Made by a program: the position numbers and the translations under genes
Source of the DNA: Eledone cirrhosa
Lineage: Eukaryota
Assembly: GCA_964016885.1 (NCBI GenBank)
Contig: OZ024749.1
Span: 36,580,001-36,644,000, forward strand
Length of the DNA: 64,000 nucleotides
Direction: 5' to 3'
The notes under the pieces: model-generated
What the model was told of the DNA's origin: nothing
The model's input: only the letters and a program-made list of their open reading frames with translations
Database searches by the model: none
Shown: positions 7,620 through 60,755 of the stretch, piece after piece
Layout: each line of letters opens with the position of its first letter
Position numbering within the stretch: position 1 is the stretch's first letter

Positions 7620-10600
7620 ACTGTGGCCATGCTGGAGCACTGCCTACCTTCTACTGGTTTCAGTCATTTGACTGTGGCCATGCTGCAGCACTGCCTACCA
7701 TCTACCGGTTTCAGTCATTTGACTGTGGCCATGCTGCAGCACTGCCTACCTTCTACTGGTTTCAGTCATTTGACTGTGGCCATGCTGCAGCACTGCCTAC
7801 CTTCTACTGGTTTCAGTCATTTGACTGTGGCCATGCTGGAGCACTGCCTAACTTCTACTGGTTTCAGTCATTTGACTGTGGCCATGCTGGAGCACTGCCT
7901 ACCTTCTGCTGGTTTCAGTCATTTGACTGTGGCCATGCTGGAGCACTGCCTACCTTCTACTGGTTTCAGTCATTTGACTGTGGCCATGCTGCAGCACTGC
8001 CTACCTTCTGCTGGTTTCAGTCATTTGACTGTGGCCATGCTGGAGCACTGCCTAACTTCTACTGGTTTCAGTCATTTGACTGTGGCCATGCTGGAGCACT
8101 GCCTACCTTCTACTGGTTTCAGTCATTTGACTGTGGCCAAGCTGGAGCACTGCCTACCTTCTACTGGTTTCAGTCATTTGACTGTGGCCATGCTGCAGCA
8201 CTGCCTACCTTCTACTGGTTTCAGTCATTTGACTGTGGCCATGCTGGAGCACTGCCTACCTTCTACTGGTTTCAGTCATTTGACTGTGGCCATGCTGGAG
8301 CACTGCCTAACTTCTACTGGTTTCAGTCATTTGACTGTGGCCATGCTGGAGCACTGCCTACCTTCTACTGGTTTCAGTCATTTGACTGTGGCCATGCTGG
8401 AGCACTGCCTACCTTCTACTGGTTTCAGTCATTTGACTGTGGCCATGCTGGAGCACTGCCTACCTTCTACTGGTTTCAGTCATTTGACTGTGGCCATGCT
8501 GGAGCACTGCCTACCTTCTACTGGTTTCAGTCATTTGACTGTGGCCATGCTGGAGCACTGCCTACCTTCTACTGGTTTCAGTCATTTGACTGTGGCCATG
8601 CTGGAGCACTGCCTACCTTCTACTGGTTTCAGTCATTTGACTGTGGCCATGCTGGAGCACTGCCTACCTTCTACTGGTTTCAGTCATTTGACTGTGGCCA
8701 TGCTGCAGCACTGCCTACCTTCTACTGGTTTCAGTCATTATACTATGGCCATGCTGGAGCACTGCCTACCTTCTACTGGCTTCAGTCATTTGACTGTGGC
8801 CATGCTGGAGCACTACCTACCTTCTACCGGTTTCAGTCATTTGACTGTGGCCATGCTGGAGCACTGCCTACCTTCTACTGGTTTCAGTCATTTGACTATA
8901 GCCATACTGGAGCACTGCCTACCTTCTACTGGTTTCAGTCATTTGACTGTGGCCATGCTGGAGCACTGCCTACCTTCTACTGGTTTCAGTCATTTGACTG
9001 TGGCCATGCGGCAGCACTGCCTACCTTCTACTGGTTTCAGTCATTTGACTGTGGCCATGCTGGAGTACTGCCTACCTTCTACTGGTTTCAGTCATTTGAC
9101 TGTGGCCATGCTGGAGTACTGCCTACCTTCTACTGGTTTCAGTCATTTGACTGTGGCCATGCTGGAGTACTGCCTACCTTCTACTGGTTTCAGTCATTTG
9201 ACTGTGGCCATGCGGCAGCACTGCCTAACTTCTACTGGTTTCAGTCATTTGACTGTGGCCATGCTGGAGCACTGCCTACCTTCTACTGGTTTCAGTCATT
9301 TGACTTTGGCCATGCTGGAGTACTGCCTACCTTCTACTGGTTTCAGTCATTTGACTGTGGCCATGCGGCAGCACTGCCTAACTTCTACTGGTTTCAGTCA
9401 TTTGACTGTGGCCATGCTGGAGCACTGCCTAACTTCTACTGGTTTCAGTCATTTGACTGTGGCCATGCTGGAGCACTGCCTACCTTCTACTGGTTTCAGT
9501 CATTTGACTTTGGCCATGCTGGAGTACTGCCTACCTTCTACTGGTTTCAGTCATTTGACTGTGGCCATGCGGCAGCACTGCCTAACTTCTACTGGTTTCA
9601 GTCATTTGACTGTGGCCATGCTGGAGCACTGCCTACCTACTGGTTTCAGTCATTTGACTGTGGCCATGCGGCAGCACTGCCTACCTTCTACTGGTTTCAG
9701 TCATTTGACTGTGGCCATGCTGGAGCACTGCCTAACTTCTACTGGTTTCAGTCATTTGACTGTGGCCATGCTGGAGCACTGCCTACCTTCTGCTGGTTTC
9801 AGTCATTTGACTGTGGCCATGCTGGAGCACTGCCTAACTTCTACTGGTTTTAGTCATTTGACTGTGGCCATGCTGGAGCACTGCCTACCTTCTACTGGTT
9901 TCAGTCATTTGACTGTGGCCATGCTGGAGCACTGCCTACCTTCTACTGGCTTCAGTCATTTGACTGTGGCCATGCTGGAGCACTGCCTACCTTCTACTGG
10001 TTTCAGTCATTTGACTGTGGCCATGCTGGAGCACTGCCTACCTTCTACTGGTTTCAGTCATTTGACTGTGGCCATGCTGGAGCACTGCCTAACTTCTACT
10101 GGTTTCAGTCATTTGACTGTGGCCATGCTGGAGCACTGCCTACCTTCTACTGGTTTCAGTCATTTGACTGTGGCCATGCTGGAGCACTACCAACCTTCTA
10201 CTGTTTTCAGTCATTTGACTGTGGCCATGCTGGAGCACTGCCTACCTTCTACTGGTTTTAGTCATTTGACTGTGGCCATGCTGGAGCACTGCCTACCTTC
10301 TGCTGGTTTCAGTCATTTGACTGTGGCCATGCTGGAGCACTGACTACCTTCTGCTGGTTTCAGTCATTTGACTGTGGCCATGCTGGAGCACTGCCTACCT
10401 TCTACTGGTTTCAGTCATTTGACTGTGGCCATGCTGGAGCACTGCCTACCTTCTGCTGGTTTCAGTCATTTGACTGTGGCCATGCTGGAGCACTGACTAC
10501 CTTCTGCTGGTTTCAGTCATTTGACTGTGGCCATGCTGGAGTACTGCCTACCTTCTACTGGTTTCAGTCATTTGACTGTGGCCATGCTGGAGCACTGCCT

Positions 10601-12270
10601 ACCTTCTGCTGGTTTCAGTCATTTGACTGTGGCCATGCTGGAGCACTGCCTACCTTCTGCTGGTTTCAGTCATTTGACTGTGGCCATGCTGGAGCACTGC
10701 CTACCTTCTGCTGGTTTCAGTCATTTGACTGTGGCCATGCTGGAGCACTGACTACCTTCTACTGGTTTCAGTCATTTGACTGTGGCCATGCTGGAGCACT
10801 GCCTACCTTCTGCTGGTTTCAGTCATTTGACTGTGGCCATGCTGGAGCACTGCCTAACTTCTACTGGTTTCAGTCATTTGACTGTGGCCATGCTGGAGCA
10901 CTACCAACCTTCTACTGTTTTCAGTCATTTGACTGTGGCCATGCTGGAGCACTGCCTACCTTCTACTGGTTTTAGTCATTTGACTGTGGCCATGCTGGAG
11001 CACTGCCTACCTTCTACTGGCTTCAGTCATTTGACTGTGGCCATGCTGGAGCACTGCCTACCTTCTACTGGTTTCAGTCATTTGACTGTGGCCATGCTGG
11101 AGCACTACCAACCTTCTACTGTTTTCAGTCATTTGACTGTGGCCATGCTGGAGCACTGCCTACCTTCTACTGGTTTCAGTCATTTGACTGTGGCCATGCT
11201 GGAGCACTGCCTACCTTCTGCTGGTTTCAGTCATTTGACTGTGGCCATGCTGGAGCACTGCCTACCTTCTACTGGTTTCAGTCATTTGACTGTGGCCATG
11301 CTGGAGCACTGCCTACCTTCTGCTGGTTTCAGTCATTTGACTGTGGCCATGCTGGAGCACTGCCTACCTTCTGCTGGTTTCAGTCATTTGACTGTGGCCA
11401 TGCTGGAGCACTGCCTACCTTCTACTGGTTTCAGTCATTTGACTGTGGCCATGCTGGAGCACTGCCTACCTTCTGCTGGTTTCAGTCATTTGACTGTGGC
11501 CATGCTGGAGCACTGCCTACCTTCTGCTGGTTTCAGTCATTTGACTGTGGCCATGCTGGAGCACTGCCTACCTTCTGCTGGTTTCAGTCATTTGACTGTG
11601 GCCATGCTGGAGCACTGCCTACCTTCTACTGGTTTCAGTCATTTGACTGGCCATGCTGGAGCACTGCCTACCTTCTACTGGTTTCAGTCATTTGACTGTG
11701 GCCATGCTGGAGCACTGCCTACCTTCTACTGGTTTCAGTCATTTGACTGTGGCCATGCTGGAGCACTACCTACCTTCTACTGGTTTCAGTCATTTGACTG
11801 TGGCCATTCTGGAGCACTGCCTACCTTCTACTGGTTTCAGTCATTTGACTGTGGCCATGCTGGAGCACTACCTAACTTCTACTGGTTTCAGTCATTTGAC
11901 TGTGGCCATGCTGGAGCACTGCCTACCTTCTACTGGTTTCAGTCATTTGACTGTGGCCATGCTGGAGCACTACCTACCTTCTACTGGTTTCAGTCATTTG
12001 ACTGTGGCCATGCTGGAGCACTGCCTACCTTCTACTGGTTTCAGTCATTTGACTGTGGCCATGCTGGAGTACTACCTACCTTCTACTGGTTTCAGTCATT
12101 TGACTGTGGCCATGCTGGAGTACTGCCTACCTTCTACTGGTTTCAGTCATTTGACTGTGACCATGCTGGAGCACTGCCTACCTTCTACTGGTTTCAGTCA
12201 TTTGACTGTGGCCATGCTGGAGCACTGCCTACCTTCTACTGGTTTCAGTCATTTGACTGTGGCCATGCTG
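7620..12270. repeat. 51-bp minisatellite, ~91 copies
   Basis: Unit actgtggccatgctggagcactgcctaccttctactggtttcagtcatttg. Confidence 0.97.
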
Positions 12271-13545
12271 TGGCAGTGATGGTTTTGATGCTAGTAGTGG
12301 CATTGGTGTGTAGGACAGTGGTGGTGGTAATGGTGGTGGTAGTAGTTGGTGATGGTTGTGGTGGTGGTAGTAGTTGGTGATGGTTGTAGTGGTGGTGGTA
12401 GTGGTAGTAGTTGGTGATGGTTGTGGTGGTGTTGGTAGTGGTAGTAGTCGGTGGTGGTTGTGGTAGTTGGTGGTAGTGTTAGTAGTAGTAGTTGGTGATG
12501 GTTGTGGTGGTGGTGGTAGTTGGTGGTGGTGGTAGTGGTAGTAGTTGATGTTTGTGGTGGTGGTAGTGGTAGTGGTGGTAGTTGGTGATGGTTGTGGTGG
12601 TAGTTGGTGATGGTTGTGGTGGTGGTGGTAGTTGGTGATGATCGTGGTGGTAGTGGTGGTGGTGGTGGTAGTTTGTGATAATGGTAGTGGTGGTAGTTGG
12701 TTGTGGTGGTGATGGTGGTGGATGTAGTCGGTGATGGTTGTGGCGGTGGCGGTGGCAGTGGTGATGATGGTGGTAGTAGTCGGTGATGATCGTGGTAGTG
12801 GTGGCAGTGGTGATGATGGTGGTAGTAGTTGGTGATGGTTGTGGTGGTGGCGGTGGTGGCAGTGGTGATGATGATGGTGGTAGTAGTTGGTGATGGTTGT
12901 GGTGGTGGCGGTGGTGGCAGTGGTGATGATGATGATGGTGGTAGTAGTTGGTGATGATGGTAGTGGTGATGGTGGTGGCCGTGATGTAGGTGTATATCTC
13001 ATTCTTCTGTATTGATCCTCTGTGGCTGAGATTTAGCTGAGCATTTACAGTCTCCTCTCATGTGGATCTTTGCTCACACACATACAAACATGGCCTTACA
13101 CACACACACACGGTCTTACACACACATACATACATGGTCTCACTCCCTCACACACACATGGTCTTATACATACATACATGGCCTTACTCTCTCTCACACA
13201 CATGGTCTTACACACACATACATGGTCTTACTCTCTCACACACACATGGTCTTACACACATACATACATACATGGTCTCACTCCCTACTCCCTCACACAC
13301 AGTGTACATCTATCACATCTGTTGCCTTCAGACCTTATCCTCCTACTACCTCTCTCACTCCACCCTCTCTCACTAGCTCTTTAAATATATCTACCTCTAA
13401 CACATACCGCCACCACCACCACCATCACTACCACCACCACCACCATCACCACCACCACCACCACCACCACCACATCTATCAGTTCACATCTCATATATCA
13501 TCCATAAACCATCAACCATTATATATATTACACTGTCATGTATGT

Positions 13546-18925: not shown

Positions 18926-19492
18926 CAACACATATATACATATATATATATATATATCATGTTTACATTCCATCTAACTAACCAACTAGACTGTCCTTCA
19001 CTGTCCTCCATTTTGAGCTCCTACTTCTCCAGTTGTCACACGTACACACATACACACGTGTGCATGTGTAATTTATGTCATGAACTACATCTCTTGACAG
19101 TGTGTATGTATATATATCATCTTGGTTAAGAGAGTGGGACTGGCTTTGTGCAGTGCCTTTGCTCACTATAAAAGCTTCACGGCACAGGCATTGCTTTATA
19201 TCTGAAGATCTCTCTGCACTTGTCGTCACATGGTACCATGGGCCCAGCACTATGTGTCAATAATTGTCACAAGTGTAGTGTTTGTACCAGAGTTTTCAAG
19301 TCGTTGGCTGGACTAAAAAGTCACACACGTTCAGCGCATCGGTAGGGGTTCTCCTACATGGATATAAAGTAGAGGCCGTACTCGAAAAACGAGTTGGCAG
19401 CCACCATATATATATGTATGGGGGTTGTATCAGTGTGTGTGTGTAATATATGTGTAGTTGGTTAGATTATCAATATTAGCATTATTGGGGCA

Positions 19493-19619
19493 CCCACTGA
19501 TGAATTATAGGAGCCCACTTGAATATATATCTATTGATGGTATACAAGCTCCTACATAAATTGGTATAATTTAACCCAAATTGTAGGAATCCTATAATGA
19601 AACGAGACGTCCGTCTGGG
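19493..19619 (+). ncRNA. type I hammerhead ribozyme motif with large branched loop II
   Basis: ccca-CTGATGA(19497-19503)-attatagga...tcctataat-GAAA(19599-19602)-cgagacgtccg-TC|tggg. GUC cleavage triplet at 19613-19615; stems I, II and III all pair. Confidence 0.8.
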
Positions 19620-19804
19620 AAGAGATATATTCGATATGTCTCATATGAAATAATACAGCCAATTTTCCACGCAATACTTTTAGTTAGCACCCCGAACGCA
19701 TAATTGGGAATATAATCACTTATTTCCTAATGTTTGTTGAGTGAGTTGGAATTTGGCCGGAGTATCGCTAAAAAGCTTTCTCCGATATTGTATTTATTTA
19801 TTTA

Positions 19805-19836
<32 letters not shown>

Positions 19837-19838
19837 AT

Positions 19839-20174
19839 ATATATAAGATCAAAAGATGGTTAAATGAGTTCCATGTATTTTATTATGCGCATTTCAAAAA
19901 CAAATATCATCATGCAATAACATTTGTGTTTTCATCAGATAAAATAGGAGGACATGATATGAAGATTAAAAACACTTGTGGATAGTGCAGTTTTAAATCA
20001 ACATATCATTTGTTGATTTAAAACTGCACTATCTACAAGTGTTTTTAACCTTCATATCATGTCCTCCTATTTTATCTGATGAAAACACAAATGTTATTGC
20101 ATGATGATATTTGTTTTTGAAATGCGCATAATAAAATACATGGAACTCATTTAACCATCTTTTGATCTTATATA
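19839..20174. repeat. near-perfect ~165-bp-arm palindrome (7-nt loop) of a hammerhead-bearing element
   Basis: Arms 19839-20003 and 20011-20174 are reverse complements with two differences seen. Followed by tail ctacaataaaactcacctcctaca; flanked by (TA)n. Confidence 0.95.
20068..20138 (+). ncRNA. minimal type I hammerhead motif with palindromic loop III (mirror copy on - strand at 19876-19946)
   Basis: tattttat-CTGATGA-16-bp stem II-GAAA-tgcgca-TA|ataaaata. Perfect 8-bp stem I; TGCGCA palindrome. Confidence 0.8.
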
Positions 20175-20211
20175 TTATGTATACTCCAGTACTACAATAA
20201 AACTCACCTCC

Positions 20212-20255
<44 letters not shown>

Positions 20256-20327
20256 TATTGAAGTTTCTGTTGAAAATTGAAAAAGTCAGAGTAATGAAGA
20301 GTGCTCTATGTAAGTTACAGAGCTAAA

Positions 20328-20454
20328 TATTTAATGTATAATAAACAATACAGTATTGCTTTGTCTGATGAACGAATGCGGACGTGTCTTGTATTCATCT
20401 TATTTGGGAAACCTCTGGTAATGAGGTAATTATACTGTATTGTTTATTATACAT

Positions 20455-20460
<6 letters not shown>
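20328..20460 (+). ncRNA. type I hammerhead motif with ~37-bp stem I (stem II degenerate)
   Basis: CTGATGA 20365-20371, GAAA 20408-20411, cc-tct-gg-TA| (GUA 20418-20420). 20328-20364 pairs with 20421-20460. Confidence 0.65.
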
Positions 20461-20488
<28 letters not shown>

Positions 20489-20674
20489 GAAGTTCTATTT
20501 AAATTGTTGGGATACAATGGGTTATTTAAATCTACTGTGATTTTAAAATATCCGAAACTAATTTACATAATAGTATAAATAAATTTATAACCCCACTATC
20601 CGGGAGCTTCCAACAGAAATGGTCGCATTCTTTAAGGTTATGTCAATATTTATTTATAAAACTGCTCTATATTA

Positions 20675-20739
20675 TATTTTATCTGATGAAAGCACACCAT
20701 AATTTAACTTGGTGTCCTTGAAATATCTATAATGAAATA
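20675..20739 (+). ncRNA. minimal type I hammerhead motif (family shared with 45632-45697)
   Basis: tattttat-CTGATGA(20683)-aagcacacca...tggtgtcctt-GAAA(20720)-tatcta-TA|atgaaata. Lies in a ~290-bp element (20486-20778) between (TA)n tracts. Confidence 0.7.
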
Positions 20740-20802
20740 AATATGGTTTTATAAATATAGTTTCCATTTGTTAATATATCATATATATATATATATATAT
20801 TG

Positions 20803-24021: not shown

Positions 24022-24466
24022 AACGCTTATACTTTGTAAATCAAAAGACCAGCCTTTTGATATGTTTATTGTTGTACTGTATTAAGATGTGTTTATTGTT
24101 GTACTGTTCAGTGTTCATTCATTGATAAAGTTCACTCTTCATTAAGGTGCAGTTATCCTATTGTTTACTGTTCACACATCTATAAAGTTCATACTTCATT
24201 AAGATCTGTTTACCATTACATAGACTACTGTTCATTGTTTACTCATCTATAAAGTCTGTTTACTTTGTTTATTGTGTTATTTACTGTTTACTTTGTTTAT
24301 TGTGTTATTTACTGTTTACTCATAAAGTCTACCTTTTATTAAGATGTATTCATTGTTCACTATTTACTGTTCCATAAAGCCTGTTTTTAAGTTGCGTTTA
24401 TCATTGTATTGTTCACTGTTAACTGTTCACTAAATCCTGTTTCTTTTTCCATTTGTGTGTCTACAG

Positions 24467-24569
24467 AATACAATCGGTTTGAAACCAAAATTCAAGATTT
24501 ACGGGAACAAATCATGAACACAAGTACTGGCAGTTTACGAACAACACAGAAACGAACTCTATATGTCAG
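24467..24569 (+). CDS. dlg1: discs large (DLG1/SAP97-like MAGUK) exon: PDZ3-SH3 linker and start of SH3
   Basis: ctacag|...|gtaagg boundaries; 103 nt, phase 1 to 2. Translates (E)[33 protein letters not shown](R), matching the DLG-family YSRFEAKIHDLREQMMN...SLRTSQKRSLYVR segment. Confidence 0.96.
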
Positions 24570-25025
24570 GTAAGGAAGGACACTTTACTACCTGCTAGTG
24601 GGGGCTTTAGGGGTTACAGTTTGGTGCTGTTTGAATTCTACTGGGACTGGACATGTTACCACCTGATAGTGGGGGCTTTAGGAGTTAAAGTTTGGTGGTC
24701 TGGGAACTATACTGGGACTAAGGAAGGACATGTTACCACCTGATAGTGGAGGCATTAGTGATAAAAGTTAGGTGGTCTGGGAACTATACTGGGATTAAAA
24801 AAGGACACACACATTACCTTTGGATAGTAAAGGTTTAGGAGTTAAGGTTTGGTAGTGTTGGGACTAAGGAAGAACACATTACCACCTGATAAGGGGAGTT
24901 TGATGGTGTGGGAACTCTAATGTGACTAAGGGAAGACACTTTACTACCTGATAGTGGGGTGTATTGTTAAGGTTTCATGGCGTGGGAATTCACTGGGACT
25001 AAGGAAAGACATGTTACCTTATGAT
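24570..25025. repeat. degenerate ~70-bp tandem repeat starting at the exon donor site
   Basis: Recurring (g/c)taaggaaggaca...ttac(c/t)acctgatagtgggg...gggaact...ctgggac. Confidence 0.75.
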
Positions 25026-26467: not shown

Positions 26468-26612
26468 AGGAAAAAGTATGACCCCGACGGCAGAGCTCAA
26501 GCTGTTTCGACGGCTATTTCTGGACTCCATTTCCCACTCTACTACCCTAAGTATTGAGTACTCTGGTGCGTTATGGTCCATTTGGTTCCTTACCACAATT
26601 CCTTTGTTATAT
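26468..26612 (+). mobile_element. copy of the palindrome-plus-tail element lacking the right arm
   Basis: Left arm gaccccgacggcagagctcaagctgtttcgacggcta joined directly to tail cccactctactaccctaagtattgagtac; (TA)n flanks. Confidence 0.8.
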
Positions 26613-26976: not shown

Positions 26977-27220
26977 TATATTAATAAAAGGAATTCCAAC
27001 TTTGTCTGATTTACTCGTTTAAAATTATAATGATATTGCAATTGGAAACTTGACTGTCACCACTGAATATGAACCTGAAGATTGTGAAAGCATGAAAGTA
27101 CTTGTTCAATTCAAATTTAATATTCTACCATACTATTTCATTATAATATCATTATAATTTTAAAGGATTGAAAATAAAACGAGTAAATCAGACAAAGTTG
27201 GAATTCCTTTTATTAATATA
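26977..27220 (+). mobile_element. fold-back element with ~45-60-bp inverted arms enclosing a degenerate minimal hammerhead (27070-27108)
   Basis: Arm tattaataaaaggaattccaactttgtctgatttactcgttt and its reverse complement. Inside: tgaac-CTGAAGA-ttgtgaaagcat-GAAA-gtac-TT|gttca. Confidence 0.65.
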
Positions 27221-30217: not shown

Positions 30218-33135
30218 TAATGATGATAATAATGAAAATATTGTGTACAGTGCTCAGGTGCACTACAACTCATCAAAAGTGTATGTATAGTACATAGGGT
30301 AATGTACAAACGTCAGGAAAATATATATCATGAGTCATGATATACACGTGTGCATGTGTATGGAAGGGGGGACATCAGGTCTAGTTTTGGAGAATTTCGC
30401 GAAGCATGAGGGTTTTAAAGGATGCAGTGTCTCAACAGCTAACAACTGATGCAGGTAGTTTGTTCCATGGAGGTTTTAAAGGATGCAGTGTCTCGACAGC
30501 TAACAACTGATGCAGGTAGTTTGTTCCATGGAGGTTTTAAAGGATGCAGTGTCTCGACAGCTAACAACTGATGCAGGTAGTTTGTTCCATGGAGGTTTTA
30601 AAGGATGCAGTGTCTCGACAGCTAACAACTGATGCAGGTAGTTTGTTCCATGGAGGTTTTAAAGGATGCAGTGTCTCGACAGCTAACAACTGATGCAGGT
30701 AGTTTGTTCCATGGAGGTTTTAAAGGATGCAGTGTCTCGACAGCTAACAACTGATGCAGGTAGTTTGTTCCATGGAGGTTTTAAAGGATGCAGTGTCTTG
30801 ACAGCTAACAACTGATGCAGGTAGTTTGTTCCATGGAGGTTTTAAGGGATGCAGTGTCTCGACAGCTAACAACTGATGCAGGTAGTTTGTTCCATGGAGG
30901 TTTTAAAGGATGCAGTGTCTCGACAGCTAACAACTGATGCAGGTAGTTTGTTCCATGGAGGTTTTAAAGGATGCAGTGTCTCGACAGCTAACAACTGATG
31001 CAGGTAGTTTGTTCCATGGAGGTTTTAAAGGATGCAGTGCCTCGACAGCTAACAACTGATGCAGGTAGTTTGTTCCATGGAGGTTTTAGAGGATGCAGTG
31101 TCTCGACAGCTAACAACTGATGCAAGTAGTTTGTTCCATGGAGGTTTTAAAGGATGCAGTGTCTCGGCAGCTAACAACTGACGCAGGCAGTTTGTTCCAT
31201 GGAGGTTTTAAAGGATGCAGTGTCTCGACAGCTAACAACTGATGCAGGTAGTTTGTTCCATGGAGGTTTTAAAGGATGCAGTGTCTCGACAGCTAACAAC
31301 TGATGCAGGTAGTTTGTTCCATGGAGGTTTTAGAGGATGCAGTGTCTCGACAGCTAACAACTGACGCAGGCAGTTTGTTCCATGGAGGTTTTAAAGGATG
31401 CAGTGTCTCGACAGCTAACAACTGATGCAGGTAGTTTGTTCCATGGAGGTTTTAAAGGATGCAGTGTCTCGACAGCTAACAACTGATGCAGGTAGTTTGT
31501 TCCATGGAGGTTTTAAAGGATGCAGTGCCTCGACAGCTAACAACTGATGCAGGTAGTTTGTTCCATGGAGGTTTTAAAGGATGCAGTGTCTCGACAGCTA
31601 ACAACTGATGCAGGTAGTTTGTTCCATGGAGGTTTTAAAGGATGCAGTGTCTCGACAGCTAACAACTGATGCAGGTAGTTTGTTCCATGGAGGTTTTAAA
31701 GGATGCAGTGTCTCGACAGCTAACAACTGATGCAGGTAGTTTGTTCCATGGAGGTTTTAAAGGATGCAGTGTCTCGACAGCTAACAACTGATGCAGGTAG
31801 TTTGTTCCATGGAGGTTTTAAAGGATGCAGTGCCTCGACAGCTAACAACTGATGCAGGTAGTTTGTTCCATGGAGGTTTTAAAGGATGCAGTGCCTCGAC
31901 AGCTAACAACTGATGCAGGTAGTTTGTTCCATGGAGGTTTTAAAGGATGCAGTACCTCGACAGCTAACAACTGATGCAGGTAGTTTGTTCCATGGAGGTT
32001 TTAAAGGATGCAGTGTCTCGACAGCTAACGACTGATGTAGGGAGTTTGTTCCATGGAGGTTTTAGAGGATGCAGTGTCTCGACAGCTAACAAATGATGCA
32101 GGTAGTTTGTTCCATGGAGGTTTTAAAGGATGCAATGTCTCGACAGCTAACAACTGATGCAGGTAGTTTGTTCCATGGAGGTTTTAAAGGATGCATGTCT
32201 CGACAGCTAACAACTGACGCAGGCAGTTTGTTCCATGGAGGTTTTAAAGGATGCATGTCTCGACAGCTAACAACTGACGCAGGCAGTTTGTTCCATGGAG
32301 GTTTTAAAGGATGCAGTGTCTCGACAGCTAACGACTGATGTAGGGAGTTTGTTCCATGGAGGTTTTAGAGGATGCAGTGTCTCGACAGCTAACAAATGAT
32401 GCAGGTAGTTTGTTCCATGGAGGTTTTAAAGGATGCAATGTCTCGACAGCTAACAACTGATGCAGGTAGTTTGTTCCATGGAGGTTTTAAAGGATGCATG
32501 TCTCGACAGCTAACAACTGACGCAGGCAGTTTGTTCCATGGAGGTTTTAAAGGATGCATGTCTCGACAGCTAACAACTGACGCAGGCAGTTTGTTCCATG
32601 GAGGTTTTAAAGGATGCAGTGCCTCGGCAGCTAACAACTGATGCAGGTAGTTTGTTCCATGGAGGTTTTAAATGATGCAGTGTCTTGACAGCTAACAACT
32701 GACGCAGGTAGTTTGCTCCATGGAGGTTTTAAAGGATGCAGTGTCTTGACAGCTAACAACTGACGCAGGTAGTTTGTTCCATGGAGGTTTTAAAGGATGC
32801 AGTGTCTCGACAGCTAACAACTGACGCAGGTAGTTTGTTCCATGGAGGTTTTAAAGGATGCAGTGTCTCGGCAGCTAACAACTGACACAGGTAGTTTGCT
32901 CCATGCTTCAGCAACTCTAAGCGTGAAAAAATGTTTCCGAAAGTCATGGGAGCTGTGCTGTTTTCTGACTTTGTAGGCATGTCCACGTGTGTTAGACACA
33001 TGGAGATCAAAAAGGTGCTCAGGGTTGTTGTTGGCGAGATGGTTAAGACCCATACATCCACCCCTTTATACCACCCAACGGCAATGTCTTCCAATATCTT
33101 TCTATTGATTCCAGTCTCAACAGTTTACTGATTCC
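30218..33135 (-). mobile_element. CR1-clade LINE 3' fragment containing an internally amplified 61-bp minisatellite
   Basis: - strand NTRGHAYKVRKQHSSHDFRKHFFTLRVAEAWSKLPVSVVSCRDTASFK (CR1 ORF2 C-terminal signature). 3' UTR and (att)n tail at 30218-30405. Confidence 0.85.
30405..32904. repeat. 61-bp minisatellite, ~41 copies
   Basis: Unit catggaggttttaaaggatgcagtgtctcgacagctaacaactgatgcaggtagtttgttc. Confidence 0.97.
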
Positions 33136-33579: not shown

Positions 33580-35335
33580 ACTAGCTAAACCTACATAGGT
33601 GTGAGCTGTAACAACCACCTGATATGACTGGGTCTCCTATCGTTAAAACACCCAAGAAACCTCCTATGAGATAAAAACCTTATAGGAGGCTACTTAAACC
33701 AACATAGGTGAAAGTTGTAATGGCTTCTTGATAGGAATAGGGGCCTATATTATTAACACACCCAAGAAGACTCCTATGAAATACAACCTTGTAGGAGGCT
33801 AGCTAAACCTACAAAAGTACGAGCTGTAACATGATAGGAGCTGGGCTCCTATCGTTAAAACATCCAAGAAACCTTCTATGAGTGAGCTGTAACAACACAA
33901 CAGGACTTGGGCCCCTATTGTTAAAACATCCAAGAAACCTATGAAATAAAACCTTATAAGAGGCTAGTTAAACCTACATAGTTATGAGCTGTTACAACAT
34001 GATTAGACTAGGGGCCCTTATCATTAAATACCCAAGAAACCTCCTATAGGAGGCCAGCTAAACCTACATAGTTATGAGCTATTACAACATGATTAGACTG
34101 GGGGCCCTTATCATTAAATACCCAAGAAACCTCCTATAGGAGGCCAGCAAAACCTACATAGTTATGAGCTGTTACAACATGATTAGACTGGGGTCCCTTA
34201 TCATTAAATACCCAAGAAACCTCCTATAGGAGGCCAGCAAAACCTACATAGTTATGAGCTGTTACAACATGATTAGACTGGGGTCCCTTATCATTAAATA
34301 CCCAAGAAACCTCCTATAGGAGGCCAGCAAAACCTACATAGTTATGAGCTGTTACAACATGATTAGACTGGGGTCCCTTATCATTAAATACCCAAGAAAC
34401 CTCCTATAGGAGGCCAGCAAAACCTACATAGTTATGAGCTGTTACAACATGATTAGACTGGGGTCCCTTATCATTAAATACCCAAGAAACCTCCTATAGG
34501 AGGCCAGCAAAACCTACATAGTTATGAGCTGTTACAACATGATTAGACTGGGGTCCCTTATCATTAAATACCCAAGAAACCTCCTATAGGAGGCCAGCAA
34601 AACCTACATAGTTATGAGCTGTTACAACATGATTAGACTGGGGGCCCTTATCATTAAATACCCAAGAAACCTCCTATAGGAGGCCAGCAAAACCTACATA
34701 GTTATGAGCTGTTACAACATGATTAGACTGGGGGCCCTTATCATTAAATACCCAAGAAACCTCCTATAGGAGGCCAGCAAAACCTACATAGTTATGAGCT
34801 GTTACAACATGATTAGACTGGGGTCCCTTATCATTAAATACCCAAGAAACCTCCTATAGGAGGCCAGCAAAACCTACATAGTTATGAGCTGTTACAACAT
34901 GATTAGACTGGGGTCCCTTATCATTAAATGCCCAAGAAACCTCCTATAGGAGGCCAGCTAAACCTACATAGTTATGAACTGTTACAACATGATTAGACTG
35001 GGGGCTCTTATCATTAAATACCCAAGAAACCTCCTATAGGAGGCCAGCAAAACCTACATAGTTATGAGCTGTTACAACATGATTAGACTGGGGTCCCTTA
35101 TCATTAAATGCCCAAGAAACCTCCTATAGGAGGCCAGCTAAACCTACATAGTTATGAACTGTTACAACATGATTAGACTGGGGGCTCTTATCATTAAATA
35201 CCCAAGAAACCTCCTATAGGAGGCCAGCAAAACCTACATAGTTATGAGCTGTTACAACATGATTGAACTGGGGGCCCTTATCATTAAATACCCAAGAAAC
35301 CTCCTATAGGAGGCCAGCAAAACCTACATAGGTGT
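33580..35335. repeat. 90-bp minisatellite (~15 copies from ~33960) preceded by longer diverged units
   Basis: Unit aggccagcaaaacctacatagttatgagctgttacaacatgattagactggggtcccttatcattaaatacccaagaaacctcctatagg. Confidence 0.95.
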
Positions 35336-38029
35336 GAGCCTTAAATAATTTAATTTTCAAATATCTTTCACGTTTAGTCTGATGCACTAATAACCCTACA
35401 TCAATCTGCCATCTAGTTTGTAATAAAAGACAGTGGCACGAGGAAGGTGGAGGAATGGAAGACATATTGAAATGTAGTTCGGGATGGGGGAGGGAGGGGT
35501 TGTTTGTTTGTTTTCAATATTTTCTAGACACCAGTGGCAATAAATCACATTGTCAGGAAGTTGGAGAATATTTCATCTGGTGGCAGTGGGCAGTGTGTGG
35601 GGGGGTGTGGGGGAAGGGGAGTCTCTAAACTATCATGGCACCAATAACTAAATATTGGAAATGGTCGATAATCAATAATAGTGGTGATGTGTGGTGGTGG
35701 TGGTGGTGGTGGTGGTGATGTTGTTGATGGTAGTTGTGTAGTACTTGGTCCACTGGCACAACCGGATTTGATTGACTACTACTACTACTACTATTACCAC
35801 CACCACTACTATCACCACCACCACCACTACTACTAATTCCACCATCATTACTATTACTATTACTACTACTAATTACTACCATCACCACTACTTCTATTAC
35901 TGCTTTCTCTACTACTTTCATTCCTCTAGGGGTTGATAAAATATGATACCAGTCATGTACTAGGGTATATTTAGGATATAAAACACATGTATGTATACTA
36001 TGACTAACTTTGTCTTTTATTTTTCTGCGCTCGTCCTATACTGGGGTAGATTTAATATTCATCTTAGATTTGTATGTGAATTATAATAGAAGACTAAGGC
36101 AAACTTTAATATTCTTATGGAGCTGATAAACATATGGTACCAGTTATGTACTGAGTGTCATCTAATCAACTGTTGCTGCTTTCAATATGTGCCAAGAAAG
36201 GTTTTGTTTTAACCCTTCCATTGCCATATTTCTAGTGAAAGATACTGCCTATGATTTTCAAATAATTTTGAAAATATTCAAGAAGTTGCAGGGATTTAGT
36301 TATATAACTAACTTTCTCATTATTATTAATATTTAACTGTTGCAAATAATTTTGAAAATATTAGAATTTTGAAGGGTTTAGTAACACAGGTAAAATTCCA
36401 TTATAATGAATACCATCATAACAAATGTTTCAGTTTAACAAAATTTATGCTCAATCTCATTATAAAAAATTTTTTCGTTACAATAAATTTATTTTTATAC
36501 CCTGTGAATTTCATTGTATACCTAACTTTCACATTATATTTACTATTTAGCTATTTCAAATAATTAAGGATTTTGAGGGGTTTAGTAATATAATTAACTT
36601 TCTCGTTATTCAGCTGGTGTTTGGAGCATAACATAACAATGGTCCTTACTTAACAACAGGTCTTCAATAAAATTATGATGAAAAGTTTTTAGATAAATAT
36701 AAAACAGACATTTCATGATGATAATGATAAAGACTTTAAAATAAATAGCTTTTTATCCTCGAACCAGGGCCAGTTTCAGGCTGTTTGGCATGAAAAGTGT
36801 TATTAATCCATCCCAACAAACAATAGTTACTCCTTCACATGGTGTGTGATATTTTATACACACCATTCACTGTGTGTATGGTCCCCCCCCCCCCCCCCCA
36901 CCTCTTCCTCCTGTTGGACATAAAAGCTGTATATTTTAATAATGCCAGTCTTGAAATGAAATATTAAATTATTCCATACTGTTTCCATGGTAACTGGCTA
37001 GTTTTTCCATTGTCTTCATTTTATTTTAATCATCTCTTAATAACATCATTTCCATATAGCTTGTGTATTGTGTGTGTGTCTATGCATGGATGCATGGACT
37101 GTATGTGTATATTTGTGTGTGTGTGTATGTGGATATATATATATGTGTGTGTGTGTGTGTATGTGGACAGTATATTGACTGTGTCTATGTGCAAGTATTT
37201 TGTATTCACTGTGTCTATGTATGTATGTGTCTGAAGTAAACATGGCCAGTATTTGGTGTGCATTGTGTGTGTGTGTGTGTGTGTATGTGTACCAAATGTA
37301 CTAATTGTAGTCACATTGTATGTGTGTGTGTGTACCAATGTGCTGATGGTAATACATATGTGCATTGTGTGTGTGTACCAAATGTACTAATTGTAGTCAC
37401 ATTGTATATGTGTGTGTGTACCAAATATACTGATGGTAGTACATGTGTGTGTATGTGTGTACCAAATATACTGATGGTAGTACATATGTGTGTGTGTGTG
37501 TGTACCAAATATACTGATGGTAGTACATATGTGTGTGTGTGTACCAAATATACTGATGGTAGTACCTGTCTGTGTACCAAATATACTGATGGTAGTACAT
37601 GTCTGTGTACCAATGTACTGATGGTAATACATACTAGTGTGTATGTGAAAACTGATACCATATTGTTTTACAATAGTCTCCCCTCAATGACTTCAACATC
37701 TGGCAGTGTTTACAATAATACCAAGTCATTGAGTACTCAATACTGCACTGTACTGTGTTGTACTACACTACACTGTACTACACTACACTACACTGCACTG
37801 CACTACACTACACTACACTACACTACACTACACTGCACTACACTGCACTGCACTACACTACACTACATTGCACTACACTACACTGCACTGTACTGCACTA
37901 CACTATACTATACTACACTACACTACACGTAGAGTGTAAACATTGTTATTTATTATAGAAACGGCTTCTACAGGACTAGAACTGTTTCATTCATTGAACT
38001 TACAATTGCTCTAGGCTTGTAATGTTATA

Positions 38030-42067: not shown

Positions 42068-42225
42068 ATAGGAAAAAGAAGTTGAAATGCAATTGGAGTC
42101 TTTAAGGAGGTATATTTACAATAATTTATAAGATTACCAGTTTCACAAGTTTCATGATTTTTGTAAGTTATTGTAAATAAACCTTCTTAAAGACTCCAAT
42201 TGCATTTTCAACTTCTTTTTCCTAT
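42068..42225. repeat. ~65-bp-arm imperfect palindrome (fold-back/MITE-like) next to (TA)n
   Basis: ataggaaaaagaagttgaaatgcaattggagtctttaag... and ...cttaaagactccaattgcattttcaacttctttttcctat. Confidence 0.8.
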
Positions 42226-43195: not shown

Positions 43196-43438
43196 TATAA
43201 TAATAATAATAATGAAATTATTGTGTAAAGTGCTCAGGTGCACTACAACTCGTCAAAGGTGTATGTATAGTACATAGAATAATACACAAATGTCAGGGAA
43301 GTACATGTGTGTATGTGTTAGCTGTAGTGTTGGCGGATCTCGAGAAGCATGGAGGCCTTAAAGGATGCAGTGTCTCGACAGCTAACAACTGATGCAGGTA
43401 GTTTGTTCCATGCTTCAGCAACTCTGAGCGTGAAAAAA
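43196..43438 (-). mobile_element. CR1-clade LINE 3' end, unexpanded copy of the 30218-33135 family
   Basis: Same 3' UTR (agtgctcaggtgcactacaactc), one copy of the 61-bp segment, then cttcagcaactctgagcgtgaaaaaa. Confidence 0.85.
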
Positions 43439-43786: not shown

Positions 43787-43792
<6 letters not shown>

Positions 43793-43942
43793 AGAATTAG
43801 GACCCCGACGGCTGAGCTCTGGCCATTTCGACATCCGTCAGGGTCCTAATTCTTTTCATATTACCCACTCAACTACCCCAGGTATCGAGTGCACTAGTGC
43901 ATTATGGTCCACCTGGTATCTTACCACACTCTCTTTGTTATA
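43787..43942 (+). mobile_element. diverged copy of the palindrome-plus-tail element with shortened palindrome
   Basis: atgaaaagaattaggaccccgacgg...ccgtcagggtcctaattcttttcat plus homologous tail; (TA)n flanks. Confidence 0.8.
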
Positions 43943-44009
43943 TATATATGTATATATATATATATATATATATAATATAAGATCAAAAGATGGTTAAAAG
44001 AGTTCCAAG

Positions 44010-44080
44010 TATTTTATTATGCGCATTTCAAAAACAAATATCATCATGAGATGATATTTCCGTTTTCATCAGATAAAATA
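44010..44080 (-). ncRNA. minimal hammerhead motif, second copy of the 19839-20174 family (single arm, element ~43975-44280)
   Basis: Reverse strand reads tattttat-CTGATGA-stem II-GAAA-tgcgca-TA|ataaaata. Same downstream tail ctacaataaaactcacctcctaca at ~44257-44280. Confidence 0.75.
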
Positions 44081-44276
44081 GGGATACATGATATGAAGGT
44101 TAAAAAACACTTGTGAATAGTGAAGTTTTAAATCAACATATGAAAAATAATTTAAGATTGATGTGTGATATTGGGAAAAAAAGAGGGGGAGGGGGTTGGA
44201 AAGGGTAAGGAAGAGGAGGAGATGAGAGTAAAGAATGGTGGGGGAGGAGTATTGTGCTACAATAAAACTCACCTCC

Positions 44277-44309
<33 letters not shown>

Positions 44310-44314
<5 letters not shown>

Positions 44315-44530
44315 AACGCGTAGGACCCCGACGGCTGAGCTCAAGCTGTTTCGACGGCTAATTCTGGATTAAACTCTGGACTAAATTTAGTCCAGAATTA
44401 GCCGTCGAAACGGCTTGAGCTCAGCCGTCGGGGTCCTACTCGTTCCTATTACCCACTCTACTACCCTAAGTATTGAGTACTTTGGTGCGTTATGGTCCAC
44501 CTGGTTCCTTACCACATTTCCTTCGTTATA
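44310..44530 (+). mobile_element. palindrome-plus-tail element (half-hammerhead family) in (TA)n
   Basis: ~65-bp arms ataggaacg.gtaggaccccgacggctgagctcaagc.gtttcgacggctaattctgga and their reverse complement, then an 80-bp unique tail. The right arm has GAAAC-ggct-tgagctc-agcc-GTC. Confidence 0.85.
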
Positions 44531-44781: not shown

Positions 44782-44958
44782 AGCTTTGTTTGACTATGAT
44801 CCCACTAAGGACAGTGGGTTGCCCAGTAAAGGTTTAGCATTTAAATACGGTGACATTTTACACGTCACTAATGCCAGTGATGATGAGTGGTGGCAAGCCA
44901 AACGTATCACCCCAGAAGGGGAAGAAGAAGGAATGGGGATCATCCCAAGTAAAAGACG
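44782..44958 (+). CDS. dlg1: dlg1 exon: SH3 domain
   Basis: ttccag|...|gtaaaa; 177 nt, phase 2 to 2, in frame with the previous exon. (R)[58 protein letters not shown](R) is the canonical DLG SH3. Confidence 0.97.
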
Positions 44959-45143
44959 GTAAAATATTCCTTTTCCTATTTTATTCTCTCATCTTGTTGT
45001 TGTCGTTGTTGTTTGTTGTTTGTTAGTGTCCTTACCATTGTTGTCATCAGAGTTCCATAAAAATATCCTCTTTTCTTCCCAATTAAAACATCGTCTATTT
45101 CATACTACTACTACTACTATTACTGAGTTCATCTAAACACTAT

Positions 45144-45493: not shown

Positions 45494-45532
<39 letters not shown>

Positions 45533-45631
45533 AAGTTATATTTAAAATTGTTGGGTTACAACTAGTAAATATTTATAACTGATATAAAAGCACTCGACAA
45601 ATATTTGGAGTCTATAAAACTGTTTATATTG

Positions 45632-45697
45632 TATTTTGTCTGATGAAGGCATAACATATTGTTAATATGATATCCCCGAAATATATATAATGAAATA
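45632..45697 (+). ncRNA. minimal hammerhead motif (second copy of the 20675 family; element ~45529-45738)
   Basis: tattttgt-CTGATGA(45640)-aggcataacatatt gtt aatatgatatcccc-GAAA(45678)-tatata-TA|atgaaata. Flanks are homologous to 20486-20778. Confidence 0.65.
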
Positions 45698-45854
45698 AAT
45701 ATGGTTTTATAAATATAGTTTTCCATTTATTTAATATTGTATATATATATATATATATATACAAAATTAAATTAAGTGTGTCATGTCTGAGAGACATGCG
45801 CCATATCCACTATAGAATAAGCTCAAAGATTCCAATGAATAGATCCGAGCATTT

Positions 45855-46224
45855 TATATCAACTAGAAATTGATTGACATATATATATATATATCTAAAA
45901 TAAACACATGAAACAATCACAGGGAATAATTTGTAAAGTGTGGAAGCACACACAGCTAGGTAGGTAACTAATGGTATTTCAAATATTTTATATCTATATT
46001 TTCATTTGACCAAACTTCTCAAAGCATTCCTACAAACGATAAATGCATACATAGATTCACACACACATGATTAATCATTTTAAAAGGTATCTATATTTGA
46101 AGTTCTAGTTAAACTTTAATTAGTTACCTACCTAGCTGTGTGTGCTTGCACACTTTACACATTATCCCGTGATTGTTTCATGTGTTTATTTTAGATATAT
46201 GTCAATCAATTTCAAGTTGATATA
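45855..46224. mobile_element. MITE-like element with ~100-bp terminal inverted repeats
   Basis: 45855-45971 is the reverse complement of 46120-46224 (e.g. cacacacagctaggtaggtaactaa / ttagttacctacctagctgtgtgtg). Confidence 0.75.
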
Positions 46225-51690: not shown

Positions 51691-51836
51691 CTACAATTAT
51701 TATTATTATTATTGTTGTTGTTGCTGTTGTTATTATTATTATCATTATTATTTATTTCTTTTTTTTTTTTTTTCTTTACCAATTTCTATTGCGCCAAATG
51801 CTAACCAATCTGATTTCTTGTTTTTTCTGCATGCAG

Positions 51837-51857
51837 AAGGCGATTGCCCCGGCCAAG
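51837..51857 (+). CDS. dlg1: candidate 21-nt dlg1 microexon ((E/Q)GDCPGQ)
   Basis: Branch point ctaac at 51801, then ttttttctgcatgcag|AAGGCGATTGCCCCGGCCAAG|gttttt. GC-rich island in an AT-rich intron, phase 1-1; the donor is weak. Confidence 0.55.
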
Positions 51858-52268
51858 GTTTTTACTCTGTTTGTTTCTAGATTATTGTCAAACCTGCTTC
51901 TTAGCCATGTGTTGTTGTACTCCGCTTCATGCTCACACCTTCCCCCCACCACTATCACTATCACCACTTACTTTTCAAATTTTAAATCACGCCACCACCA
52001 CTATCACCACCACCACCACTATCACCACTACCACCACTATCACCACATCTGCACCCTCACCACCACCACTATATCTGTTTTGTGTGTGTGTATGTGTGTG
52101 TGTGTGTGTGTGTATAAGAAGGAAGAGAAAGAGAGGAGGAAGAGGAAGGCTAAGATTCTGAGTCTGTTGTGTCTTAACAGTTCATATATTTAACAAAAGC
52201 CTTGTGAGTAACGTTTGGTAGAGCGAAACTGTGTAAAGCTGATCCTGCGTGAATGTGTACACATATAA

Positions 52269-52337: not shown

Positions 52338-52547
52338 ATAACGAAGGAAATGTGGTAAGGAACCAGGTGGACCATAACGCACCAAAGTACTCAATACTTA
52401 GGGTAGTAGAGTGGGTAATAGGAACGAGTAGGACCCCGACGGCTGAGCTCAAGCCGTTTCGACGGCTAATTCTGGACTAAAGATTTTAGTCCAGAATTAG
52501 CCGTCGAAACGGCTTGAGCTCAGCCGTCGGTCTCCTACTCGTTCCTA
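52338..52547 (-). mobile_element. palindrome-plus-tail element, inverted copy of 44310-44530
   Basis: Tail 52338-52420 is the exact reverse complement of 44448-44530. Same palindrome; (TA)n flanks. Confidence 0.85.
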
Positions 52548-54274
52548 TATATATATGTATTGGCAGTATCGGTAGAGGGTCTGATGCCATGCTTTGCAGC
52601 AAAGAGTTGCGGCCCTTTACGGTCTGAGTTCAAATCCTGCTGAGGTTAACTTTGCCTTTCATCCTTACGGGGGTCGATAAAATAAAGTACCAGTAATGCA
52701 CTGTGATAATTGTCGGCCTTGTGCCAAAGGTAGAAATAATTATATATGTAATAGGTATGTATATGTCTGTATGTATATATATGGATGCATATATATATGT
52801 GTGTGTATGTGTATGCATATATAAATGTGTATGTATGTATATATGTGTGTATATATATATAAATACATACACACACATATATATATATACTTACACACAT
52901 ATACAGGATGCAATTGTGGAAAAATGGATCTAAAAATGATGATGACTGGATGTTTTCAATGCTAGAAAAAGCAATCACTGAAACTTCGAAGTCACTGCCA
53001 AATTATTCTTCAGAATATATATTTAATGGTCCAAGTTTTCCCATCTTATTAGGCATTTTTTTATTGTCAAAAACTTGCATTGAAGCAGTTAGCTTTAAAT
53101 AAACCATATCTCTCTCTCTCTATATATATATATATGTATATACACACAAATAGATGTTATGACTATCACTCATATATATATATATATATACATACATACA
53201 CCTACCTACCTATGTGTCTCATAAACTAGCAGTTTCATTAAAAAAAATGAGATTGATAAAAATTTGTAGCAGACTTGGATTGATATGATTGATTAAATTT
53301 CTTCAAGACTGTGCCCCAGGATGGCCTCAGTCTAATGAGTGAAATGCATGAAAGAATTTTAAAAAAATATTTACACAGTGAAATAGGGCTGTCTAACTGA
53401 AATGCTGTCAACAGACACTGTGTGTTAAGACTGTATATGAAAGGTCCTTCTGCAGGGATTACAGATGATAGATTCCTTGAGTAAGGACCACAACTGCAAG
53501 GTCCATTATATAGGGACCACAAATGATAGGTACCTTTTATAGAGACCTTGTTTATATGTTAACTGTCAACAGACACCTTGAGGATTTAGAAGTGAAAAGG
53601 TACCTTATGCTGTGTACCTGTGTAGGGCTCCTGTCCTATCATGGAAAGCAATGTTAAATGAAGTGTCTTGCTCGCTACACAACACAGTACCTTGTCCCAG
53701 AATTGAACCTACAACATTATACTTGTGAGTCAAACACCCTAACCACTAGGCCACAAGACCTTGTTTATAAATTAAATGCCAAGAATTTGATGTAGATAGT
53801 ATTGAGACATTATAAACATGGATTTGCTGTAAAAACTGAGAAATGAATGAAGTCCACCTATTCTTGTTTTGTCTGGTAACAGAACATATGATGATGGGGG
53901 TGGGGTGCAGAGTTGGTTAACGTGTGTGTATGTGTAGGTGTCATTTAGTCCTAACAGAAGCAGACAGTAAAGGTTTAATATTACTCAGGTACATCCAGCA
54001 TTGAATGATGACAATTGCTGCCCTAAACACCTATCTGTAAAGCCTTCAAAAGAGGTGTTGCAGGGGTTGGGTAAGAGGATAAAACTGTTCTCAGGGCCCC
54101 ATGAGAATTCATACAAAATTCAAGGGTATCACATTCCTTAAATCTGTTGTTACCATCTTTCTAATGAAAGGCACTGTGCTCTATGGTTTTCTAATAATTT
54201 TTAATATAATCAAATTTGTGGAATGATTTAGTAATATAACTTTCTCATTATCAAGCCTGTGTTTAGAACAGAAC

Positions 54275-54562: not shown

Positions 54563-55254
54563 GGTATCACAAAATTATGATTGAAGGTTCTTAAATAAAT
54601 ATAAACACTTTAATATAAACAATTTTGTTTCACAGAAACAGGGAAGGTTTCAGGTGGTTTGGTACTATAACATAAGGCTCTTACATAACACTATGATGGA
54701 AAGATTTTACATAAATATAAGCATTTCAAAATAAGCAGTTTTGCACCATAGAACCAAGGGTGGTTTGTTATCAAAAGGGCTAACACATCTTTAACAGTAT
54801 TTACTGTTATTTTGATAACCCATTGCTGTCTACAACTGTTTCAACTAACTGACACACACACACGCACACGCACGCACACAAATACACAAATATAGATATA
54901 CATCACAAGTACACATGTACACACACATTTGCTCATTATTTAAATTTATTCTTATTTGCTTGCCTTTGTTTGGTATCATTTTTATTACTTTTTAAAATGT
55001 TTAATTTATTTTTTGTTTAACCCTTTCATTACCATATTTCTAATAAAAGACACTGTTTATAGTTTTGAAAATATTTTCAAAATAATTAAAGGTTCATGTG
55101 AAGTTTCCTTAATGTCACATGTATTGATGCCACAGATGACAAGTACCTCTGTGGGTGCCAGGGTTCAATGATATCTACTATCATGGGTTCATAGCAGCAG
55201 TAGTTTGTATTCAAATGTTTCTCTGCTTATTGGAGTCACTAAGTATCATATTAT

Positions 55255-56215: not shown

Positions 56216-56928
56216 TACAATTTAAACTGGAATTCATTTATTATTTTTTTGTTGCATTAATTATGGTTGTGGATTGACAGTATCAGTAGAGGGTCTGACA
56301 CCATGCTTTGCAACGTGGAGTTACGGCCCTTTGCGGTCTGAGTTCAAATCCCGCCGAGGTTAACTTTGCCTTTCATCCTTACGGGGTCGATAAAATAAAG
56401 TACCACTAATGCACTGGGGTAATTGCTGGCCTTGTGCCAATAGTAGAAACAATTATTATAGGGTGGTGGATTGGCAGTATTAGTGGAGGGTCGAACGCCA
56501 TGCTCTGTGGCATAGTTACGACCCTTTACAGTCTGAGTTCAAATCCTGCCGAGGTTAGCTTTGCTTTTCATCCTTACGGGGTCATTGAAATAAAATACCA
56601 GTAACACACTGAGGTCGATTTAATCGACTTTCCCCACCCCACAAAATTGTTGGCCTTGTGCCAAAATCAAAAACCATTATTATTAGTGTTTATTTCCATC
56701 TCACTAAAAGTTCCTGCTCCACTGTGTATTAGCACCCTCTACCACTCCCCCCCCCCCCCCCCACACCCACACCACCACTACCACCAGCTTTCTCCTCTCT
56801 TTAGATTTAGTTTGCCATTCTCCTCAGTTCTGCTTCTTTTGATATGTTGGGTTTAATATATTCTTCATTACAACATGTCCATATTTTTTCCTGAAATTTG
56901 TCTTTCTTTCTCTCTCTCTCTCTCTTCA

Positions 56929-60734: not shown

Positions 60735-60755
60735 GTCCTCCTGAGAAGAAACCAG
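60735..60755 (+). CDS. dlg1: candidate 21-nt dlg1 microexon ((G/R)PPEKKP)
   Basis: ttttttcattgcatgtctcatag|GTCCTCCTGAGAAGAAACCAG|gtaacc. Phase 1-1, purine-rich ESE-like GAGAAGAA. Confidence 0.65.

Follow-up and report, generated by a model that had tools for sequence, protein, structure and literature searches.

PLE insertions are described as carrying an adjacent, inverted, 5'-truncated copy and a tail of 30-40 bp at one end (Craig et al., 2021, PMC8557442), with head-to-head inverted junctions that contain palindromes and AT-rich targets (Arkhipova et al., 2013, PMC3846280). How PLEs build such inverted copies is listed as unresolved in the first of these reports (PMC8557442); in vitro, a purified PLE protein cut and extended both strands of an AT-rich target, with two start sites bounding the tail (PMC11167929). 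A single minimal PLE hammerhead gave no cleavage in vitro and opposite-strand hammerhead pairs 100-700 bp apart are described from Schistosoma (both PMC4209133), while a lizard PLE hammerhead required its protein (PMC11167929). For the non-LTR retrozymes a derivation from the PLE pLTR has been proposed, and many of their copies are intronic monomers (bioRxiv 10.64898/2026.07.22.740005). PLEs have been annotated in O. vulgaris, some of them recently active (PMC13282606). Young repeats are given as the main targets of ADAR (PMC9989829), the palindromic Harbinger of Xenopus and Penelope of lizard are reported as heavily edited, and near-perfect dsRNA is unusually common in octopus (4.4e-3 of loci), whose hyper-editing signal is among the two highest of the species compared (all PMC5625713). 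Inverted PLE junctions, opposite-strand hammerhead pairs and the editing of palindromic repeats are already in print, and each ingredient of the locus described below is known.

Positions 19839-20215 of the window (the whole stretch of 64,000 nucleotides of Eledone cirrhosa DNA that was analysed) probably represent a young insertion of a short non-coding hammerhead retroelement, mobilised in the fashion of PLEs and forming a hairpin without regulatory role. The unit is 377 bp long and non-coding. It follows a (TA)11 target tract (19815-19836) and opens with the left arm (19839-20003, minus strand; defined by pairing and by alignment to the sister copy described below), a 5'-truncated copy without tail that is antisense to the host transcript. 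A 7-nt loop (20004-20010), recognized from pairing and from centre variants in run contigs, forms the head-to-head junction with the right arm (20011-20175, plus strand; pairing), a 5'-truncated copy that carries the tail and is sense to the host transcript. The one-sided tail of 40 nt (20176-20215, plus strand), delimited by the sister copy and by run joints to 20171-20197, abuts a (TA)19 target tract on the right flank (20216-20253). Both copies of the element in the window (2/2) have TA tracts on both sides, a target-site duplication being unreadable inside (TA)n.

Pairing outward from position 20007 gave arms of 165 bp that are identical at 163/165 positions, with exactly two non-Watson-Crick positions, G19980.T20034 (a G-U pair on the plus transcript) and A19965.C20049. 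This bears out an earlier note on this DNA, which had described a palindrome with a 7-nt loop and two arm differences, one a G-U and one an A-C at A19965/C20049; the span given there (19839-20174) was right at its left end, stopped one base short of the right end at 20175 and left out the 40-nt tail. The palindrome folds at -260 kcal/mol (z -47.8; 0/100 shuffles equally stable) and is the longest of the nine non-simple inverted repeats in the window (arm of at least 25 bp, spacer below 400 nt, simple repeats excluded), the runner-up having arms of 69 bp.

The host gene is discs large (dlg). Exon 44783-44959 encodes an SH3 peptide that is 100% identical to the discs large protein of Octopus bimaculoides and O. 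sinensis, in keeping with the coleoid host supposed earlier, and SH3 was the sole Pfam family above its curated cut-off in the 86 stop-free frames of the window. Six discs large exons, of which two are matched over just 8 residues, lie on the plus strand from 24466 onward; the nearest downstream of the palindrome (24466-24570, plus strand; protein match) has an AG acceptor and a GT donor, and the PDZ3 exon that precedes it is not in the window. Because the downstream exons are on the plus strand and the PDZ3 exon lies outside the window, we infer that the palindrome is intronic in discs large. The antisense arm would then be transcribed first in the host direction, and the earlier statement that the ribozyme is preceded by its antisense holds. 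Two probable dlg micro-exons (51836-51859 and 60734-60757) each match 8 residues of the Octopus protein. The dlg introns also contain long tandem arrays (7620-12278, 30405-32905, 33583-35339 and 55243-56217; periods of about 51, 61, 90 and 110 nt), the 61-nt unit being present singly as well at 43348-43412, and further MITE-like inverted-repeat elements without hammerhead (26977-27220, 42085-42207 and 45855-46224).

Alignment revealed a sister insertion (43975-44280, minus strand) that comprises one tail-less arm and the tail end only, with no palindrome and with TA tracts on either side. Its arm extends about 115 nt further upstream than the arms at 19839-20175, and the last 24 nt of the 20176-20215 tail recur in it at 44257-44280. 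The loop at 20004-20010 coincides with a 6-nt self-complementary site, and the same site is intact in the sister copy. The left arm and the sister-copy arm are identical in 152/167 columns; since the two arms of the palindrome are alike at 163/165 positions and match the sister copy at only 152/167, the two arms share one template. At 19965/20049 the sister copy sides with the right arm, at 19980/20034 with the left, and because it agrees with a different arm at each mismatch, one substitution is assigned to each arm after insertion. The extra 115 nt or so on the tail-less side of the sister copy, set beside the tail end alone on its other side, imply that neither side was copied from the other.

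Four of 23 sequencing runs (X1, X4, X5 and X21) were aligned to 19828-20228 at 85% likeness, and they place the locus in a large family. Run X1, which may be the source sample of the window's assembly, gave 4141 aligned contigs, with a summed depth of about 0.03-1.26 million over the arm bins versus 48-195 for the joints listed; this depth, which is summed and not a copy number, suggests a family of about 10^4 copies. Nine of the 13 X1 joints listed (there are 48 further ones) depart from the left arm at 20002-20006 and resume on the right side at points within 20062-20197, and among the joints listed sequence is missing mostly from the tail-bearing side. The tail-less arm may be near-fixed in length and the tail-bearing arm variable, an asymmetry read from the listed joints, which may be a biased sample. 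Tandem head-to-tail copies of the element are absent from the window, and at least two tail-to-start joints occur in X1 contigs among the joints listed, so that tandem forms may exist elsewhere.

Recurrent inverted junctions are seen at the palindrome centre as well. Among the X1 variant rows listed (there are 43 further ones) three are centre variants, in 13, 8 and 9 contigs; their summed depth is 38,506, about 4% of the depth that the arms have next to the centre, and the commonest of those listed (13 contigs) is the perfect palindrome. In run X5, from a different organism and study, two centre variants occur, each in a single contig. In X21, raw RAD reads, which sample few loci, gave 0/539, 0/257 and 1/179 at the three centre variants, and 275 X21 reads continue past 20006 into upstream sequence resembling the sister copy. 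Run contigs extend only slightly beyond the palindrome centre and do not imply full-length arms at other loci. At 20189-20197, 1180 X21 reads step back 9 bases, and the letters before 20189 differ in other copies (subfamilies). This suggests a longer form of the tail with a 9-nt direct repeat elsewhere, of which the tail at 20176-20215 may be a deletion form; on these reads, longer tail variants of the element are likely to exist. The element had 0 matches in metagenome contigs, and the family was not found in the literature, judged mostly by titles and abstract openings; supplementary repeat libraries may list it.

A second, unrelated TA-inserted family (44310-44530, 43789-43940, 52341-52548 and 26469-26610) has the same layout of arm, inverted arm and one-sided tail. 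Three of its four copies are palindrome plus tail and one is arm plus tail, three of the four are cut at nearly the same point, and the family has a tail of about 79 nt and, of a hammerhead-like motif, just the 3' half.

The element shows the head-to-head inverted 5'-truncated copy, the 40-nt one-sided tail and the TA microsatellite target of PLE insertions, and a PLE-type origin with an inverted partial pLTR, as stated in the earlier note, fits this anatomy. Neither RT nor GIY-YIG was matched in the 86 stop-free frames (at least 70 aa) of the window, which holds no ORF combining the two; we therefore infer PLE membership from the way the element works, as a non-autonomous, PLE-like product. 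In the mechanism that we propose, a PLE protein supplied in trans would nick both strands of the (TA)n tract and prime one cDNA on each, one beginning at the tail end and the other at the tail-less start, both proceeding toward the template 5' end and being joined head to head at their stopping points. At 19839-20215 both cDNAs would have stopped within 1-2 bases of the same self-complementary 6-mer, giving a near-perfect palindrome with a one-sided tail, and one substitution in each arm would have arisen later; in other copies the tail-bearing strand would have stopped early, leaving an arm and a tail stub. Two separate priming events are proposed because, among the joints listed, the tail-less arm is near-fixed and the tail-bearing arm variable.

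The rival that survives best keeps the PLE-type element and derives the mirror arm from fold-back self-priming of a single cDNA (or from a palindromic master read through the loop), with later loss of part of an arm. Self-priming accounts for a junction on a self-complementary 6-mer, for nearly identical arms and for the perfect palindrome being the commonest centre variant listed from X1, and junction palindromes are so explained, by preference, by Arkhipova et al. (PMC3846280). However, the tail-less arm of the sister copy runs about 115 nt past the junction site with only the tail end on its other side, the listed X1 joints lose sequence mostly on the tail-bearing side, and the centres vary among copies; we consider self-priming improbable on these grounds and prefer two-strand priming.

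Each palindrome arm contains, by descriptor and folding, a type I hammerhead motif. Stem I measures 8 bp, stem II is long, and stem III has 2 bp and is capped by a palindromic loop. The right-arm motif (20068-20138, plus strand), whose activity is a prediction from descriptor and folding, has the CUGAnGA core, GAAA, UH and stems I and II, arranged as stem I (20068-20075/20131-20138), core (20076-20082), stem II (20083-20118), GAAA (20119-20122) and the palindromic stem III (20122-20129), with predicted cleavage after 20130. Its mirror in the left arm (19876-19946, minus strand; descriptor) has its predicted cleavage nucleotide at 19884. Descriptor cores at 20076 (plus) and 19938 (minus) thus agree with the earlier placing of one hammerhead on the plus strand of the right arm and one on the minus strand of the left. 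The core motif of the descriptor agrees with the description in PMC4209133. The window holds six type I descriptor cores, from four unrelated families, whereas 40 shuffles averaged 0.2 and never exceeded 2. The element resembled no Rfam hammerhead model either at the gathering score (0 matches) or at E<=10 (36 matches, all to other models), and the ribozyme call is therefore wholly motif-based. An identity as a miRNA was rejected, the 36 weak matches being mostly to miRNA hairpin models below gathering and representing chance hairpin fits.

When the motif is folded free, stem I has a probability of 0.85-0.99 and the base of stem II about 0.5, and no stable stem III forms in the monomer (probability 0.001). 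Two copies of the 8-nt stem III palindrome pair with each other at -10.5 kcal/mol, as in the dimer type described in PMC4209133, and folding indicates that the hammerhead, when free, probably needs a dimer. Five hammerhead cores lie within 1.2 kb at 19490-20790 (19497+, 19938-, 20076+, 20365+, which is degenerate, and 20683+). They belong to four short elements of different kinds, most of them packed between TA tracts, and on its sequence this part of the dlg intron is an insertion hot spot. Related TA-flanked hammerhead elements at 20484-20775 and 45528-45740 have a stem I similar to that of the palindromic element. A second opposite-strand hammerhead pair (49543-49611/49795-49863) has 69-bp arms with 8 mismatches and a 183-nt spacer, and the match of its plus copy ends exactly at the predicted cleavage nucleotide.

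The earlier note had gone further and proposed a functional cage, in which the fold-back shields the dlg pre-mRNA from self-cleavage and ADAR tunes it through loss of core adenosines or loosening of the duplex. The block itself stands in silico, every hammerhead stem having a probability of 0.000 in the full hairpin, where the antisense arm comes first in the host direction; a job for the cage is not supported. A second caged pair at 49543-49611/49795-49863 and the strong octopus hyper-editing signal cited above (PMC5625713) would also suit the cage. The active fold, however, costs 104.5 kcal/mol in the unedited hairpin. In simulations that edited 50% of adenosines but left the core intact, this cost was still 52 kcal/mol on average and at least 39 kcal/mol in all of 30 trials when inosine could not pair (mean 86 and minimum 74 kcal/mol with inosine read as G), and all five core adenosines would jointly survive 50% editing with a probability of only 0.03. 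Editing that opens the cage was rejected on these folding energies, and with it the suggestion that editing could loosen the duplex. Editing of A19965 would in fact stabilize the hairpin by about 7 kcal/mol (from -260.8 to -267.5 kcal/mol); this position lies outside the hammerhead and has a G as its 5' neighbour, a disfavoured and depleted ADAR context in PMC5625713.

Several further observations speak against the cage: stem III reaches a probability of 0.001 even in the free motif, a sense hammerhead at 20683 stands uncaged in the same intron, and the inversion recurs family-wide with variable right arms, many without any sense hammerhead. The 20683 hammerhead, about 500 nt downstream, lacks an antisense partner and, folded in context, retains its stems I and II; the sense core at 19497, with local mispairing predicted, is a weaker control, and the sense hammerhead at 49801 is caged and lacks the 3' strand of stem I. 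We hold a functional, ADAR-tuned cage to be very improbable. The hairpin is probably an ordinary by-product of insertion by a very common small element, and folding makes an editing-controlled ribozyme switch unlikely. No ADAR-gated natural hammerhead was found in the literature, judged mostly by titles and abstract openings.

Editing of a more ordinary kind is another matter. The locus supplies a long near-perfect duplex within a transcript, as an ADAR substrate should, if its position in the dlg intron is as argued above, and by analogy with other such hairpins the palindrome is probably hyper-edited in the dlg pre-mRNA in a generic manner. There the unit would fold to a hairpin of 165 bp and block a hammerhead that probably depends on a dimer in any case, the probable hyper-editing being a passive by-product. 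Counted per 100 A/T sites, places with A>G plus T>C changes numbered 4.1 in X1, 8.4 in X4, 4.7 in X5 and 9.5 in X21, compared with 8.6, 8.6, 7.6 and 13.3 for C>T plus G>A changes per 100 G/C sites; there was no A>G/T>C excess in these four runs, which mix family copies, and none of the 23 runs is recorded as RNA. At position 19918 (mirror 20096), run X4 (88 million letters of contigs, kind unrecorded) showed T>C in 15 contigs, making up 366 of a depth of 1267; the same change accounted for 316 of 551,260 depth in X1 and, in X21, for 19 of 894 reads. On the sense strand of the element it corresponds to A>G in hammerhead stem II and could reflect a subfamily or editing, changes other than A>G being enriched in X4 as well.

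An assembly or library fold-back artefact at 19839-20215 has a very small probability. Such structures are said to trouble assemblies (PMC8557442), the locus's own loop is spanned by none of the contig pieces listed from the aligned runs, and centre-joined forms are almost absent from the raw X21 reads; against this, each arm bears its own substitution in the sister-copy comparison (19965/20049 and 19980/20034), the loop is imperfect, the flanks are unlike, the tail is one-sided, and centre-joined forms occur in two organisms and studies (X1 and X5). The artefact was rejected on the arm-specific substitutions, the flanks, the tail and this recurrence. A tandem non-LTR retrozyme was rejected too, since two or more head-to-tail units do not occur within the window. 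Weakest is a palindromic MITE of Tc1/mariner type with a TA target and a chance hammerhead-like motif, which would be short, palindromic, high-copy and TA-flanked like the element, and which is rejected as scarcely credible because the termini are not mutual inverted repeats, the tail is one-sided, a single-arm copy and asymmetric copies exist, and the junctions vary widely where a constant structure is expected.

The single locus at 19839-20215 carries little weight; the better lead is the family-wide asymmetry of the junctions. As a tentative generalization, which we hold to be possible but short of an even chance, octopus has a non-autonomous PLE-type family (of the order of 10^4 copies) with a near-fixed template 5' end, so that a pair of cDNAs, each primed on its own, would frequently meet at a single self-complementary site. 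If this is true, the family would have seeded hundreds of perfect intronic hairpins with short loops, which would make up a considerable part of the dsRNA that underlies octopus hyper-editing, and its junctions would offer natural data for telling two-strand priming from self-priming in PLE transposition. A palindrome-making retroelement could account for part of the near-perfect dsRNA of octopus. A synaptic gene with a ribozyme gated by editing would be striking; the folding energies speak against it.

Among described systems, the EN+ PLE insertions (Arkhipova et al., 2013, PMC3846280; Craig et al., 2021, PMC8557442) have in common with the octopus element the head-to-head inverted copy with a junction palindrome, a one-sided tail of 30-40 bp, an AT-rich or microsatellite target and a hammerhead in the terminal module. 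Relative to the insertions described there, the octopus element has no ORF, measures 377 bp in all, and has equal arms and a 7-nt loop, with no matching autonomous element in the window. The type I hammerheads of metazoan PLEs, which depend on dimers (Cervera and de la Pena, 2014, PMC4209133), share the conserved core, the short palindromic helix III and the long helix II, whereas helix I is 8 bp in the octopus element and 4-5 bp in theirs. Non-LTR retrozymes (Li, Clavereau and Pollet, 2026, bioRxiv 10.64898/2026.07.22.740005) are likewise short non-coding units with a type I hammerhead, but are defined in that source as head-to-tail tandems, whereas the octopus unit is head-to-head and single. 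The self-folding hyper-edited repeats (Xenopus Harbinger and lizard Penelope; Porath et al., 2017, PMC5625713) resemble it in size (about 200-350 nt), in their short loop and in needing no partner copy. Unlike the palindromic Harbinger of that study, which is a DNA transposon, the octopus unit is the junction of a retroelement, and its editing is a prediction.
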